A stretch of 64,000 nucleotides of DNA from a virus (lineage: Duplodnaviria > Heunggongvirae > Uroviricota > Caudoviricetes), in the IMG/VR virus record IMGVR_UViG_2744054962_000001; one strand, written 5' to 3'. Under the pieces are notes generated by a model. The model was not told the origin of the DNA, made no database searches, and saw only the letters and a list, made by a program, of their open reading frames with translations. Made by a program: the position numbers and the translations under genes. Shown piece after piece: positions 1 to 63,425 of the stretch. Numbering within the stretch: position 1 is the first letter of the stretch; the number at the start of each line of letters is the position of its first letter.

Positions 1-933
1 ATCGCTGCCAATCCATTTCACCGAATACGGCGGGTTAGAAACGATGGCATCAAACGGTTTTTCATCTCTGAAGTGCGGTTCAGTCAGCGTATTACCCAGC
101 TTGATATCAAACTTGTCGTAGTTGATGTTGTGCAAAAACATGTTCATACGCGCCAGGTTATAGGTCGTATGGTTGATTTCCTGACCGAAAAAGCCTTCTT
201 CGATGATATGGTTATCAAACTGTTTTTTCGCCTGCAACAACAGTGAGCCGGAACCCGCTGCCGGGTCGTAGATTTTGTTAACGCTGGTCTGCCCGTGCAT
301 AGCCAGTTGTGCAATCAGCTTGGAGACGTGCTGCGGTGTAAAGAACTCACCGCCTGACTTACCGGCATTTGCCGCATAGTTAGAAATCAGGAACTCATAG
401 GCATCACCGAACAGGTCAATCTGATGTTCGTTAAAGTCACCAAGTTTTAACCCTTCAACCCCTTTCAGAACCGCAGCCAGGCGGGCATTTTTATCTTTAA
501 CGGTGTTACCCAGGCGGTTACTGGTGGTATCGAAATCAGCAAACAAACCTTTGATGTCAGCTTCTGAAGGATAACCGTAAGCAGAACTTTCGATAGCAAC
601 GAAGATACTGTTTAAATCTGCATTCAATCTGTCATTGGTATTTGCTTTCGCAGCTACGTTGCAGAAAAGCTGGCTTGGGTAGATGAAGTAGCCTTTGGTT
701 TTGATGGCATCGTCTTTAATGTCATCAGTAATTACGCTGTCATCCAGTTTCGCATAACAGATACTGTCATCACCGGCTTCAATATAACTGGAAAAATTTT
801 CGCTGATAAAACGGTAGAAAAGTGCGCCCAGAACGTATTGCTTAAAATCCCATCCGTCAACAGAACCTCTGACATCATTGGCAATTTGCCAGATCTGGCG
901 ATGAAGCTCTGCACGTTGTTGAATACTTGTCAT
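1..933 (-). CDS. hsdM: Type I restriction-modification DNA methyltransferase subunit (HsdM-like), N-terminal 311 codons only; gene continues beyond window start
   Basis: Minus-strand frame open to position 1, ATG at 933 ([15 protein letters not shown]..); HsdM-type N-terminal region ([19 protein letters not shown]), AdoMet motif [11 protein letters not shown] and NPPY motif at the window edge; absent from ORF track because truncated. Confidence 0.85.
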
Positions 934-1361
934 TTTCATCCACTTATTTCAGGTTTAAGTAATTGGATGTGATTCTACAGCAACTTGGATGCTTTAGCAG
1001 TTCGGACATTAGGTAACGAATGACCTAATTAGAGCTTTTTGGAAAAGCGGTATTGTCGGTGCGATGATAGCTATGTTTGGGTGCGCGATGGTGCAATACA
1101 ATGACGGTGAAAAGGTAAGCATCCAGTTCGATGGCTGGTATTGGCTTGGATAGCCTGCCAAAAAACGCAGATAAAGCCTGTCAGCAATACGGAAAGTCTA
1201 AAGCTGTATATCTGCATAGCGCGAACGCTAACCCTCATCTTGCGCCTGGTACGGGTGTTCAGAATACCATCTGGAAATGTGAGCCTTAAACATGAGCAAC
1301 TGGAACATAGCAGCCAAAAGCCAGGAAGAAAGGAATAAAGTTAACGTTGACCTGGCTGCCA

Positions 1362-1370
1362 GGGGGGGGG
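1362..1370. repeat. G9 homopolymeric tract in hsdM / umuD-like intergenic region
   Basis: Nine consecutive G read directly; lies within fragmented short ORFs. Confidence 0.9.
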
Positions 1371-1605
1371 TGCCTACAAAGAGCGATTGAACATACCCGT
1401 CATAGCGGAACAGGTAGCCCGTGAGCAACCTGAGAACCTGCGCACATATTTCATGGAACGGCTACGGCACTACCGGCAGTTAAGCCTCCTGCTGCCAAAA
1501 GGAAACGATCCGGTATATCAGAAAGAAGATATAGCCAAAAAATAACGCGCCACCAGACGAGCGCAAAGCATCGCGCTATTGCACACTTCAAGCATCTTTA
1601 ATGTA

Positions 1606-1625
1606 TACTGTATGGATGAACAGTA
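1606..1625 (+). promoter_or_regulatory. LexA (SOS) box TACTGTATGGATGAACAGTA
   Basis: Fits TACTGT-N8-ACAGTA consensus; 18 nt upstream of ATG at 1644. Confidence 0.7.
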
Positions 1626-1643
1626 CTCTGAGGTGAAAACGCT

Positions 1644-2033
1644 ATGGGCTTCCCTTCTCCTGCGGCGGATTATGCTGAGAGCCGTATTTCTCTTGATCAG
1701 CAGATAATTAGACATCCTTCAGCGACCTACTTCTTGAGGGCAGCTGATAGCCATCATCGTGAGGGAATATTGCAGGGTGCATTGCTGGTGGTCGATTCCT
1801 CACTCACCCCGGTTGATGGTTCTCTGCTTGTATGCGCTCTGGATGGGGAATATCGCGTAAAAAGATACCGGAAGTATCCACGTCAGCATCTGGAGGATTT
1901 AAGAACCGGTAAGAAGGAAGCATTGCCAAAGGATGACGATGGATGCACGGGCAGCAATGCCGTGTTTGGTGTGATCACTCACATTATCAACGACGCAAGA
2001 AGTGGCGAGTTTGATGATTGTCCCGTGATGTAG
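1644..2033 (+). CDS. UmuD-like S24 peptidase lacking the N-terminal arm (UmuD'-like), no adjacent umuC
   Basis: 129 aa starting MGFPSPAADY, colinear with UmuD from Gly25; Ser (ADSH) and Lys (RVKRY) dyad positions retained; GAGG RBS; LexA box upstream. Confidence 0.75.
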   Translation: MGFPSPAADYAESRISLDQQIIRHPSATYFLRAADSHHREGILQGALLVVDSSLTPVDGSLLVCALDGEYRVKRYRKYPRQHLEDLRTGKKEALPKDDDGCTGSNAVFGVITHIINDARSGEFDDCPVM

Positions 2034-2046
2034 GAGAACTGATTAG

Positions 2047-2071
2047 GCGGTGCAATGCACCGCCTTTTTAT
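2047..2071. terminator. Rho-independent terminator between convergent umuD-like and apbC
   Basis: Palindrome GGCGGTGCA-A-TGCACCGCC followed by TTTTTA. Confidence 0.65.
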
Positions 2072-3171
2072 CACACTGCGCGGAATGCGATTTCGCCAGG
2101 TATTACTTCACCTTGCCAATACATTTGGGCAGCAACGTGATCTGCGAGGTCACGATAAATAGCCGTAAATTCGCTATCTGGACGACTAATAACGGTTGGT
2201 GTTCCGTTATCCAGATCTTCACGAAGAGAGATATGAAGTGGCATTTGGCCTAACAACTGCGTGTTGTATTTCTCGGCCAGTTTCTGTGCGCCACCGGTGC
2301 CAAAAATTGGCTCGTGATGACCGCAGTTACTGCAAATATGCACACTCATGTTTTCGACGATACCCAGTACCGGCACTTCGACTTTTTCGAACATCACAAT
2401 GCCTTTCTTCGCATCGATCAGCGCGATGTCTTGCGGCGTAGTTACCACAACCGCACCAGTTACAGGAATGTTCTGCGCCAGCGTCAACTGAATATCACCA
2501 GTGCCCGGCGGCATATCGAGAACGAGATAGTCCAGATCAGGCCACAGTGTTTCCTGCAACATCTGCATCAGCGCCTTGCTGGCCATCGGTCCACGCCACA
2601 CCATCGCATTGTCGTCAGTGACCAGATAACCAATTGAATTGGTTGCCAGGCCATGAGACATGATAGGTGCCATGTGAGTACCGTCAGGTGAGGTTGGACG
2701 TTGGTTTTCCGCGCCCAGCATGGTTGGAATTGATGGCCCGTAGATATCGGCATCCAAAATACCAACTTTCGCACCTTCAGCCGCCAGCGCCAGCGCCAGG
2801 TTTACCGCCGTGGAGGATTTACCCACGCCGCCTTTACCGGAGCTGACCGCAATGATGTTCTTCACGCCATTAATGCCTGGTTGGTTTTTGACGCGCTTAA
2901 GCGTGGCAATGTTGTACGACAGCTTCCAGTCAATAGCCTTTGCGCCAGTGATACGGAGCAGATCACCACTACATTGCTCTTTCAGATCTTCAAAAGGCTT
3001 ATTCCACACGAAAGGCATGATTAGTTCGACATGCAGTGTGTCATCCATCAACGCAACATGGTGTAACGCTTTAAGCGTAGTCAGGTTGTGTTTCAGGGTT
3101 GGGTGCTGAAAATTAGCCAGCGTACCGGCTACCATTGCTCTCAGGGCATCCGGCGATTTGGACTCGCTCAT
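2071..3171 (-). CDS. apbC: Iron-sulfur cluster carrier ATPase ApbC/Mrp
   Basis: 366 aa; P-loop SSGKGGVGKSS; near-identity to enterobacterial Mrp as recalled; divergent from metG. Confidence 0.95.
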   Translation of the reverse strand: MSESKSPDALRAMVAGTLANFQHPTLKHNLTTLKALHHVALMDDTLHVELIMPFVWNKPFEDLKEQCSGDLLRITGAKAIDWKLSYNIATLKRVKNQPGINGVKNIIAVSSGKGGVGKSSTAVNLALALAAEGAKVGILDADIYGPSIPTMLGAENQRPTSPDGTHMAPIMSHGLATNSIGYLVTDDNAMVWRGPMASKALMQMLQETLWPDLDYLVLDMPPGTGDIQLTLAQNIPVTGAVVVTTPQDIALIDAKKGIVMFEKVEVPVLGIVENMSVHICSNCGHHEPIFGTGGAQKLAEKYNTQLLGQMPLHISLREDLDNGTPTVISRPDSEFTAIYRDLADHVAAQMYWQGEVIPGEIAFRAV

Positions 3172-3328
3172 CCCGTCTCCTTTATTTTAATTTGCGCAAT
3201 TGTCGCCTTGTAGTGTACTCCAGCTACGACATTTAATCATTTATGAGAAATGCTGTTATCACATGGCAGACATAAGGCCATTTTGTTACTATCAAGCCCC
3301 TTTTCACTACAAAGAAGTAATGCCTACT

Positions 3329-5362
3329 ATGACCCAAGTCGCGAAGAAAATTCTGGTGACGTGCGCGCTGCCGTACGCTAACGGCTCAATCCACCTCGGC
3401 CATATGCTGGAGCACATCCAGGCTGATGTCTGGGTTCGTTACCAGCGAATGCGCGGCCACGAGGTTAATTTCATCTGTGCCGACGATGCCCACGGTACGC
3501 CGATCATGCTGAAAGCGCAGCAGCTTGGTATCACACCGGAGCAGATGATTGGCGAAATGAGTCAGGAACACCAGACTGATTTCGCAGGCTTTAACATCAG
3601 CTATGACAACTATCACTCGACGCACAGCGAAGAGAACCGTCAGTTGTCTGAGCTTATCTATACTCGCCTGAAAGAGAACGGTTTTATTAAAAACCGCACT
3701 ATCTCTCAGTTGTACGACCCGGAAAAAGGCATGTTCCTGCCGGATCGTTTTGTAAAAGGCACCTGCCCGAAATGTAAAGCGCCAGATCAATACGGCGATA
3801 ACTGTGAAGTCTGCGGCGCAACATATAGCCCGACTGAATTGATCGAGCCGAAATCGGTGGTTTCTGGCGCTACCCCGGTAATGCGTGATTCCGAACACTT
3901 CTTCTTTGATCTGCCTTCTTTCAGCGAAATGTTGCAGGCATGGACCCGCAGCGGCGCGTTGCAGGAGCAGGTGGCGAACAAAATGCAGGAATGGTTTGAA
4001 TCCGGCCTGCAACAGTGGGATATCTCCCGAGATGCGCCTTACTTCGGTTTTGAAATTCCGAACGCGCCGGGCAAATATTTCTACGTCTGGCTGGACGCGC
4101 CGATTGGCTACATGGGTTCCTTCAAGAATCTGTGCGACAAGCGCGGCGATACCACCAGCTTCGATGAATACTGGAAGAAAGACTCCACCGCCGAGCTGTA
4201 CCACTTCATCGGTAAAGATATTGTTTACTTCCACAGCCTGTTCTGGCCTGCCATGCTGGAAGGCAGCAACTTCCGCAAGCCGACCAACCTGTTTGTTCAC
4301 GGCTATGTGACGGTGAACGGCGCGAAGATGTCCAAGTCTCGCGGCACCTTTATTAAAGCCAGCACCTGGCTGAATCATTTTGACGCCGACAGCCTGCGTT
4401 ACTACTACACTGCGAAACTCTCTTCGCGCATTGATGATATCGATCTCAACCTGGAGGATTTCGTTCAGCGCGTGAATGCCGATATCGTGAACAAAGTGGT
4501 TAACCTGGCCTCCCGTAATGCAGGCTTTATCAACAAGCGTTTTGACGGCGTGCTGGCAAGCGAACTGGCTGACCCGCAACTGTACAAAACCTTTACTGAT
4601 GCCGCTGAAGTGATTGGCGAAGCATGGGAAAGCCGCGAATTTGGTAAAGCTATCCGTGAAATCATGGCATTGGCTGACCTGGCTAACCGCTATGTCGATG
4701 AACAGGCTCCGTGGGTGGTGGCGAAGCAGGAAGGACGCGATGCCGATCTGCAGGCGATTTGCTCTATGGGCATTAACCTGTTCCGCGTGCTGATGACGTA
4801 CCTGAAGCCGGTACTGCCGAAACTGACTGAACGTGCAGAAGCATTCCTGAATACAGAACTGACCTGGGATGGTATCCAGCAACCGCTGCTGGGCCATAAA
4901 GTAAATCCGTTCAAGGCACTGTATAACCGCATCGATATGAAGCAGGTTGAAGCACTGGTGGAAGCATCCAAAGAAGAAGTGAAAGCCACAGCCGCACCGG
5001 TAACTGGCCCACTGGCTGACGACCCGATTCAGGAAACTATCACCTTTGACGACTTCGCCAAAGTTGACCTGCGCGTGGCGCTGATTGAAAACGCAGAGTT
5101 TGTAGAAGGTTCTGACAAACTGCTTCGCCTGACGCTGGATCTCGGTGGTGAAAAGCGTAATGTCTTCTCAGGCATCCGTTCCGCTTATCCAGATCCACAG
5201 GCACTGATTGGTCGTCACACCATTATGGTGGCTAACCTGGCACCACGTAAAATGCGCTTCGGTATCTCCGAAGGCATGGTGATGGCTGCTGGCCCTGGCG
5301 GAAAAGATATCTTCCTGTTAAGCCCGGATACCGGTGCTAAACCTGGCCACCAGGTTAAGTAA
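3329..5362 (+). CDS. metG: Methionyl-tRNA synthetase
   Basis: ORF track starts at 3200 but conserved N-terminus [25 protein letters not shown] begins at ATG 3329; 677 aa; C-terminal tRNA-binding domain present. Confidence 0.97.
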
Positions 5363-5764: not shown

Positions 5765-5946
5765 AACTCACCAAATTGTATAAGACGACAGTTAGTAGCC
5801 CTACCCTCGTTACACAGCATGACTCTGAGTGTCTACCAAATATCTGTTTCGAGCACCATACGATCTCGGACTCAATTGGGTACAGAAACGGAGTATGGGG
5901 GAGTCAGGGGAGGGAAGAAAAGCTGCGTGATTACGGTGTCACATAG
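5758..5946 (+). CDS. Hypothetical small protein (62 aa)
   Basis: ATG overlaps upstream stop (ATGCTGA), suggesting translational coupling; no recognised domain. Confidence 0.3.
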   Translation: MLKLTKLYKTTVSSPTLVTQHDSECLPNICFEHHTISDSIGYRNGVWGSQGREEKLRDYGVT

Positions 5947-8514: not shown

Positions 8515-8826
8515 ATGAAAAAATCATTGGTTCTTGGTCTGGACAAAGACCAGAAGAGAAAAGAGAAGCCTGCGCTGGTTGCTCAATTAACTTTGCTGGA
8601 CATCGTTGCCAATGGAACCTCTATTCGTCTGTTCCGTGAAACAGCGGTGTCTTTCGATAAAAACACCTTTACTCGTTATGTAATGAATGTTCGTCGCCAG
8701 CGTGGAAAAGGCTGGATGGCATTTCAAAGAATGTGGCCGGAACATCAGCTCGAACTGGCTTTGATGGAAGTTAACCGCGTGGCCCAGCAAGAAATTCAGA
8801 GAGCATCAGTGATGGCAATAGCCTGA
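8515..8826 (+). CDS. Hypothetical early protein (103 aa)
   Basis: ORF track 8485..8826; ATG 8515 lies after the operator. Confidence 0.55.
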   Translation: MKKSLVLGLDKDQKRKEKPALVAQLTLLDIVANGTSIRLFRETAVSFDKNTFTRYVMNVRRQRGKGWMAFQRMWPEHQLELALMEVNRVAQQEIQRASVMAIA

Positions 8827-62321: not shown

Positions 62322-63425
62322 ATGAAAAATAGCTTTGACAGAGCACGCGCTGCGGAGAACACCTCAAAAGAGGCGATTGAGTATCTCGAAAGAGCATCTC
62401 AAATGCAGGCCGTTATGATCTCCCAGGTCAGCAATGACATGAGATTCTCGGACGCATTCATGTTATTCACTCGCTTATCTCTGCTGATAACCAGACGTCG
62501 GCCAGAGATCGCTGTTCATTGTATTTTGATACATGTTTTGCCGCACATTGCCGATGTAAAAGTAAGTGACATTAATAGGTTCATGGTGAACCAACTGGTC
62601 AACCCACTAATACTGGATGGCAAAATTGTTATGGGCCGCCGCGTTTTCTCTCTGATGAAGCAGTTCCTTAGCTGGTGCGCCTTCCAGGGGATGATAGACG
62701 TGTCACCGTTAAACGATATGTCACTTAACAAAGTTGCCGGTGGCGCAAAGCCCACACCTCGCGAGCGGAAGCTGACCGACGCAGAGGTATGGGTGTTCTG
62801 GAATATATGGGACTACTTCAATGTGTGTGCTGGTACAAAATGGGCGGCCAGGCTATGTCTTGTATCCGCAAGACGACCTGACGAAGTACTGCGGGCTAAA
62901 AAAAGTGAGTTCAATCTTAAGCGTGGGGTTTGGAATCAAGGCAAGAGGAACAAATCTGCCCGTGAGCATTCTCTGCCTTTAAGCTCATTAATGCGCACTT
63001 GTATTGAAGAGTTGTTCGAATATGGTAAAGACAGCCAGTGGCTCGTGCCTTCGAATAAAAAAATCGGGAAAGACCTTCCTATGTCTAAAGTGGCAATAGC
63101 CCAGGCATTACGTCGTATTCTGGAACGACCAGAACTGATGGAGCTTGAGCCATTTACACCCCGAGATTTGCGCCGTACTGCGCGTAGTTACTTCCCAGCA
63201 TTAGGCATAAGCCAGGAGGTATCACGTAAAATCATGAACCACAGTCTTGAGGGGATAGATCGGGTCTACGACCGGCACGATTATATGGACGAGATGCGAG
63301 ACGCCTTAGAAAGTTTCTCGACGTACATCGCATCAATCGTAGAGCAACCGGATTTAGACGAAATTGACCACAAATTCAAGGGAGATCGTCTATCAACAGA
63401 GCTTATTCGTGTAAATTTTTCATAG
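62322..63425 (+). CDS. int: Tyrosine recombinase / phage integrase
   Basis: C-terminal catalytic region with conserved Arg, RDLRRT and VYDRHDY tyrosine segment; N-terminal ~60 aa atypical, start uncertain. Confidence 0.7.
   Translation: MKNSFDRARAAENTSKEAIEYLERASQMQAVMISQVSNDMRFSDAFMLFTRLSLLITRRRPEIAVHCILIHVLPHIADVKVSDINRFMVNQLVNPLILDGKIVMGRRVFSLMKQFLSWCAFQGMIDVSPLNDMSLNKVAGGAKPTPRERKLTDAEVWVFWNIWDYFNVCAGTKWAARLCLVSARRPDEVLRAKKSEFNLKRGVWNQGKRNKSAREHSLPLSSLMRTCIEELFEYGKDSQWLVPSNKKIGKDLPMSKVAIAQALRRILERPELMELEPFTPRDLRRTARSYFPALGISQEVSRKIMNHSLEGIDRVYDRHDYMDEMRDALESFSTYIASIVEQPDLDEIDHKFKGDRLSTELIRVNFS

Follow-up and report, generated by a model that had tools for sequence, protein, structure and literature searches.

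The humD locus and the element that carries it

The window, by which we mean the whole 64,000-nucleotide stretch of DNA analyzed here, carries near its start, in this order, hsdM, hot, a LexA box, humD, apbC (convergent to humD) and metG (Table 1). The humD reading frame begins with an ATG, and its translation is exactly the sequence quoted in an earlier sequence-only reading of this DNA, in which the gene was taken for an SOS-controlled, orphan UmuD'-like gene lying between a type I restriction-modification gene and apbC.

Table 1. Positions of features at the humD locus, counted from the first letter of the window
Feature	Position	Strand	Remark
hsdM	about 1-933	-	cut by the start of the window
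hot (phage homologue of DNA polymerase III theta), frameshifted	1292-1545	+	tblastn with P1 Hot, two frames
Promoter-like site	1580-1609	+	consensus scan, 9/12 matches; pattern match only
-35-like element TGCACA	1580-1585	+	followed by an 18-nt spacer
-10-like element TATACT	1604-1609	+
LexA operator (SOS box) TACTGTATGGATGAACAGTA	1606-1625		sequence match, predicted
In-frame TGA, five codons 5' of the humD start	1629-1631	+	closes the reading frame
Ribosome binding site GAGGTG, 8 nt 5' of the humD ATG	1630-1635	+	GAGGTGAAAACGCTATG also in P1
humD (129 codons and stop)	1644-2033	+	pre-processed UmuD' homologue
Ser36 codon of humD	1749-1751	+
Lys73 codon of humD	1860-1862	+
Codons of the family-specific C-terminal tail, E122-F-D-D-C-P-V-M129	2007-2030	+
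Terminator-like hairpin AGGCGGTGCAATGCACCGCCT, then TTTTTATCACA	2045-2076	+	9 pairs, 7 of them G-C
apbC/mrp (366 aa), convergent to humD	2071-3171	-
metG (methionyl-tRNA synthetase)	about 3329-5362

Alignment with a solved UmuD structure (8gmt_B) pairs residues 2-116 of the product with residues 25-136 of the chain and sets Gly2, Ser36 and Lys73 opposite Gly25, Ser60 and Lys97 of UmuD; the Cys24-Gly25 junction itself was confirmed in the translation of the MG1655 gene (...VQC24-G25FPSPAADY). The product thus has neither N-terminal arm nor cleavage site, its Met1-Gly2 lying at the equivalent of UmuD Gly25, just where the sequence-only reading had put it. An alternative upstream start was sought and excluded: read upstream from the ATG, the in-frame codons are GCT, AAC, GAA and GGT and then the TGA, and because this stop closes the frame, no longer product with an N-terminal arm is possible. 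A stop in frame 2 to 8 codons 5' of the start is also found in 78 of 80 related viral loci. In two P1-type loci from IMG/VR (L045 and L053) the upstream in-frame stop is gone; the frame is then open for 37 codons, an ATG stands 27 codons 5' of the usual start, and an N-terminal extension is possible there.

The GFPSPA motif stands directly behind Met1 in 105 of the 120 homologues listed. Database homologues of 148 to 223 amino acids often retain the Met-Gly junction internally, preceded by extensions that are unrelated and vary from entry to entry, and in these entries of the HumD family the start codons have probably been over-called, to judge from their sequences. The over-long entries are P0022, P0024, P0046, P0048, P0063, P0071 and P0088 in our list, and some such entries bear the name 'LexA family transcriptional regulator'.

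A chromosomal location between hsd and apbC was weighed and discarded, as the window belongs to an SSU5-like phage-plasmid of E. coli. In reverse orientation it aligns collinearly with about 66 kb of p88COLEC-2, an E. coli plasmid of 111 kb; the matching blocks are 91 to 99.8% identical, and an 801-bp query around humD was 100% identical to this plasmid. The best matches listed (at least 98.6% identical) are all plasmids of 101 to 116 kb or phage genomes. The gene set of p88COLEC-2 is typical of an SSU5-like phage-plasmid: it has plasmid maintenance genes (repA, parB), structural genes of a siphovirus (terminase, portal, capsid, tape measure, tail) and genes of DNA metabolism (dnaE, nrdAB, thyA), in addition to tRNA genes, metG and apbC. 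Of 5426 complete E. coli genomes, 779 (about 14%) contained a match to a query spanning hot and humD (positions 1300-2100 of the window); 718 of the matching places are on plasmids, and 114 are chromosomal.

The apbC/mrp and metG genes (2071-5362) are full-length paralogues of two housekeeping genes, and their conservation extends to phage Cyrano and to many E. coli plasmids of 101 to 116 kb. The IS1A that p88COLEC-2 carries 3' of metG is missing from the window (5818-5833, against 77538-78300 of NZ_CP070908). Segments of the window at about 13.5-14.6, 40.8-46.3, 54.7-57.3 and 60.7-62.2 kb have no counterpart in p88COLEC-2 and form variable cargo regions.

As to the immediate neighbours, hsdM and apbC do flank the gene as had been stated, but the frameshifted hot gene, located between hsdM and the LexA box, had been missed. 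A G-run at 1362-1370 reads G9-T in the window against G6-TT in relatives, and the resulting excess of 2 nt leads to a premature stop. The plasmid that is 100% identical in this region has the same lesion, annotated as 'frameshifted' by PGAP; it could reflect either a real pseudogene or a homopolymer sequencing error shared by the two records. The hot gene travels with humD in a module of the hot-(lxr)-humD type known from P1. The flanks of this module vary among the 80 related loci, with phd or apbC downstream and, 5' of the operator, hot directly, lxr, or neither of them. It is because of this variable upstream segment that we consider the operator and humD to be a unit that recombines as a cassette. 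P1 has a divergent lxr gene, regulated by LexA, that the window lacks (1531-1594 of the window, against 4233-4950 of locus L002), and a terminator-like hairpin on the minus strand (1565-1546) may be the relic of a leftward transcription unit.

Family membership and relationship to P1 humD and UmuD

The product matches the NCBIfam equivalog model NF051876, 'HumD family translesion DNA polymerase', from end to end (residues 1-129 on model positions 1-129 of 129) with a score of 217.7 bits for a cut-off of 120. It scores below the cut-off with the UmuD subfamily model (NF007621/PRK10276; 86.6 for a cut-off of 110) and with the LexA model TIGR00498 (29 bits for a cut-off of 110.95). Among more general collections, it is assigned to Peptidase_S24 in Pfam and to phrog_811, 'UmuD-like protein', in PHROGs. 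The best relatives of solved structure are UmuD' and UmuD (E from 7e-23, for UmuD' 1umu, to 7e-22), with LexA at 7e-4. The protein consists of an S24-like domain alone, and the N-terminal winged-helix or helix-turn-helix DNA-binding domain is absent.

The Peptidase_S24 match, and the fact that some relatives are named 'LexA family transcriptional regulator' in databases, could be taken to mean that the reading frame is the C-terminal domain of a prophage repressor of the CI or LexA type whose DNA-binding domain has been lost, a subgroup that the sequence-only reading had itself kept in mind. The profile scores refute this: the LexA model remains far under its cut-off whereas the HumD model is well above its own, the match to the solved structure of LexA is much poorer than that to UmuD', and a GFPSPAADY start is peculiar to proteins of the UmuD lineage. 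We give a repressor fragment practically no credence.

The window gene is an ordinary copy of humD, orthologous to that of phage P1. Its product is 99% identical to a protein of Escherichia phage Cyrano and 90.7% identical to P1 HumD (AAQ14181), which is likewise 129 amino acids long, starts with Met-Gly and has the same ribosome binding site; in P1 too, a homologous LexA box precedes the gene, hot lies upstream and umuC is absent. Nucleotide homology to P1 falls into two blocks, one of which (1595-2032) covers the operator, the ribosome binding site and humD to its last codon, while the other (1301-1530) corresponds to hot. The two replicons are nevertheless different: the window is of the SSU5-like type, with siphovirus tail genes, dnaE, nrdAB, thyA, metG and apbC, whereas P1 is a Punavirus. 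Moreover, P1 has the divergent lxr between hot and the operator, its humD is followed by phd-doc instead of the convergent apbC, and its operator spacer contains AAATGA where the window has GGATGA.

To call the gene an orphan relative of UmuD' was thus correct with regard to the lack of umuC, but the gene is not new: it belongs to a named family already curated at NCBI, and the name HumD is already in use on near-identical E. coli plasmids. McLenigan et al. (1999, J Bacteriol 181:7005) reported the gene from P1, and PMC7092418 calls its product an 'already activated, shorter version of UmuD'; PMC9603915 presents humD as a LexA-regulated SOS gene of P1-like phage-plasmids.

A 5'-truncated umuDC remnant, a decaying pseudogene produced when the DNA beside the hsd and apbC insertions was rearranged, would fit with the frameshift in the neighbouring hot gene, the missing lxr and the mosaic surroundings. 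Against this, the reading frame is intact and matches a curated model of 129 positions over its full length, and the Met-Gly start, the ribosome binding site and the operator recur in the related loci (80 of 80) as well as in distant phages. Comparison with P1 humD gave a dN/dS ratio of 0.062 (dN 0.046, dS 0.73), and the gene is under strong purifying selection; because this ratio is so low, humD is not a truncated remnant. Conservation and dN/dS together refute the pseudogene, whose probability we set close to nil.

More distant short proteins are known from temperate phages. N15 gp26, phiKO2 gp23 and HK140 gp28 (65 to 72% identical to the window product) are also short, orphan and end with an EFDD tail, and in N15 and phiKO2 the gene is preceded by a CTGT-N8-ACAG box; the proteins differ by a Thr at the equivalent of Ser60. 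In lambdoid and telomere phages, the genes for these short forms reside at the tail-fibre/partition or att junction, and in some cases a dinI homologue is divergent from them.

E. coli UmuD is 42% identical over its residues 25-139 and of the same fold family, with which the product shares the GFPSPAADY motif, the Ser and Lys positions and control by LexA. UmuD differs by its 24-residue arm, removed with the help of RecA*, its co-transcribed umuC, its GDSM motif and the lack of a C-terminal tail. MucA, ImpA, RumA and SamA resemble the product as UmuD-type, SOS-controlled proteins borne by mobile elements. These four are precursors with a cleavable arm, each paired with its own gene for an UmuC-type polymerase. 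The long-form loci that we surveyed follow this pattern of arm and umuC; humD of the window has neither.

Predicted SOS control and absence of umuC

The LexA box reported by the sequence-only reading withstood closer inspection, which consisted of match counts, shuffles and conservation. TACTGTATGGATGAACAGTA agrees with the consensus TACTGTATATATATACAGTA at 16 of 20 positions, and its four mismatches all fall within the spacer; the CTGT and ACAG arms are both present, as is the flanking TA. The pattern CTGT-N8-ACAG occurs four times in the window for 0.76 expected, a count reached in none of 100 shuffles. Two of these occurrences, at 8629 and 40751, have G+C-rich spacers without the flanking TA and were treated as chance matches. 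In all 80 related viral loci a CTG-N10-CAG box stands 34 to 37 nt 5' of the ATG, in 16 spacer variants; the outer CTG and CAG were prescribed by the pattern used for the search, and all 16 variants also agree in the inner T and A of the CTGT and ACAG arms. A LexA binding site is also annotated ahead of the humD homologue in the P1 and phiKO2 records. The -10-like element of the candidate promoter overlaps the box, which is the usual layout of SOS promoters.

A second LexA-type box, TACTGTTTACTTATACAGTA, at 62276-62295 matches the consensus at 17 of 20 positions. It lies 27 nt 5' of an open reading frame for a 367-residue tyrosine recombinase (62322-63425, Pfam Phage_integrase), an arrangement of box and gene that is the same in p88COLEC-2. 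The placement of this box suggests that the recombinase of the phage-plasmid may also be under SOS control.

Downstream, a hairpin with a T-run separates the stop of humD from that of the convergent apbC, and the N15 and phiKO2 records have a terminator annotated at the equivalent relative place. The gene is accordingly not in an operon with umuC: a terminator follows its stop, and the next gene is convergent. That no umuC lies nearby, as first reported, was confirmed at several scales. A tblastn search with E. coli UmuC gave no hit in the whole 64 kb of the window, although matches with E<=10 were admitted; the genes annotated on p88COLEC-2, the matching plasmid of 111 kb, include no Y-family polymerase; and none of the 80 related viral loci (0/80) has an UmuC homologue within 4 kb of humD.

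The contrast between long and short forms was examined in a scan of one genome per species. Long forms start about 24 to 28 codons 5' of the Gly codon, have no C-terminal tail and are followed in nearly all cases, 0 to 30 nt downstream, by an umuC homologue. Short forms have the Met-Gly start with a stop nearby upstream, are without umuC, and in most cases end with an EFDD-type tail.

Catalytic dyad, C-terminal tail and the role proposed for HumD

Both residues of the protease dyad named by the sequence-only reading are present in the product (Ser36 and Lys73), although the G-D-S-M motif of UmuD reads A-D-S-H here. The dyad is not conserved across the family, however. Among 99 cluster representatives, 66 to 98% identical, the Ser column holds Ser in 55, Thr in 42 and Ala in 2, and the Lys column holds Lys in 98 of 99. 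In distant short forms, 39 to 59% identical and taken from Aeromonas and Hafnia phages and from Acerihabitans, Enterobacter and Rahnella genomes, the Ser column holds Q, Y, T, A and R, and the Lys column R, R, R, R and W. Because the dyad residues are replaced in these distant forms, we conclude that catalysis is not maintained across the HumD family. Such decay would fit a protein that never has to cut itself, and the presence of Ser and Lys should not be read as a sign of protease activity retained by the window product.

The C-terminal tail, EFDDCPVM, behaves in the opposite way and is almost invariant. Its residues are kept, in order, in 99, 98, 99, 95, 91, 98, 93 and 82 of the 99 representatives. 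The distant short forms still have its F/W-D-D core, with FDD kept at 39 to 50% identity, and the tail persists in short forms whose catalytic dyad is lost. It was found in no long-form UmuD of the one-genome-per-species survey, and E. coli UmuD ends before it. E. coli SSB ends with MDFDDDIPF, and the tail covers the same eight-residue span as the SSB tip DFDDDIPF, with a [D/E]-F-D-D start and a hydrophobic C-terminus; this likeness involves only 3 to 4 residues and was noticed post hoc. A literature search for a link between prophage UmuD-type proteins and SSB C-terminal tails found nothing relevant. A tail of the form (E/x)-F-D-D-x-P-x-hydrophobic-COOH thus marks the short, orphan HumD-type proteins. 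One may speculate that it is a partner-docking peptide, perhaps a mimic of the SSB tip, but we hold this to be rather unlikely. Were it true, HumD would be recruited to SSB- or replisome-binding proteins or compete for them, the loss of the N-terminal arm would be compensated, and HumD would be more than a 'pre-cleaved UmuD'.

The best explanation of the locus, and one that we consider very probable, is that the gene is the orthologue of P1 humD and encodes, under SOS control, a homologue of UmuD' made directly in the 'cleaved' form, which partners with the UmuC of the host. The gene structure, the operator, the family, the orphan status, the purifying selection and the mobile-element context were observed in this DNA itself; the function of this copy, including dimerisation, binding to UmuC and to RecA filaments, and complementation of UmuD', would follow by analogy from the 91%-identical P1 protein. 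P1 HumD reportedly dimerises, binds UmuC and RecA filaments and complements UmuD'. Mutagenesis was reportedly restored best when it was over-expressed, the protein being poorly expressed and complementing well only from a high-copy plasmid. The record of the P1 protein reads 'DNA repair; functionally complements E. coli UmuD'', and the role in translesion synthesis put forward by the sequence-only reading agrees with what is published on P1 HumD.

Under this explanation, humD would be held silent in undamaged cells by LexA of the host, bound to the operator (1606-1625), with which the -10 element overlaps. Upon DNA damage, RecA* would stimulate self-cleavage of LexA, and humD would be transcribed as a single-gene unit whose transcript would end at the hairpin at 2045-2065. 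A HumD dimer would then act in place of UmuD'2, joining host UmuC as its accessory subunit to form a translesion polymerase akin to Pol V. The slow, RecA*-dependent conversion of UmuD to UmuD', which normally delays mutagenic bypass, would be skipped. For the element, the benefit would presumably be damage tolerance, or mutagenesis, of its own genome of roughly 110 kb during the SOS response.

It is also conceivable that HumD is mainly a modulator or decoy of the host SOS machinery rather than a productive cofactor of the polymerase. It might titrate UmuC, form heterodimers with UmuD or UmuD' of the host, or bind RecA filaments, and its acidic tail might dock a further partner. The tail indeed has no counterpart in UmuD', and a model in which HumD simply substitutes for UmuD' leaves it unexplained; it is the best-conserved family-specific feature, is seen in no long-form UmuD, and matches the SSB tip in length and in its [D/E]-F-D-D start, and it does not decay across the family as the dyad does. 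In addition, lytic growth of P1 does not need humD (PMC10695390). Speaking for a productive cofactor instead, complementation of UmuD' function by P1 HumD has been published (McLenigan 1999, as cited in PMC7092418 and in another paper), docking by the tail is putative, and its resemblance to SSB comes down to the few residues mentioned above. Altogether, a role chiefly as modulator or decoy appears to us decidedly unlikely, and we retain as the probable role that of a ready-made partner of host UmuC.

The value of this locus as a discovery is small, since humD has been known since 1999 and is curated and annotated; the use of the present analysis lies in a clean annotation. Two small leads can be put to the test, namely the decay of the dyad throughout the family and the conservation of the tail. 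With regard to the biology of these elements, SSU5-like phage-plasmids carry the same SOS-controlled module for a 'ready-made UmuD'' as P1, and bacteria that host humD elements could undergo faster error-prone bypass during the SOS response induced by antibiotics.
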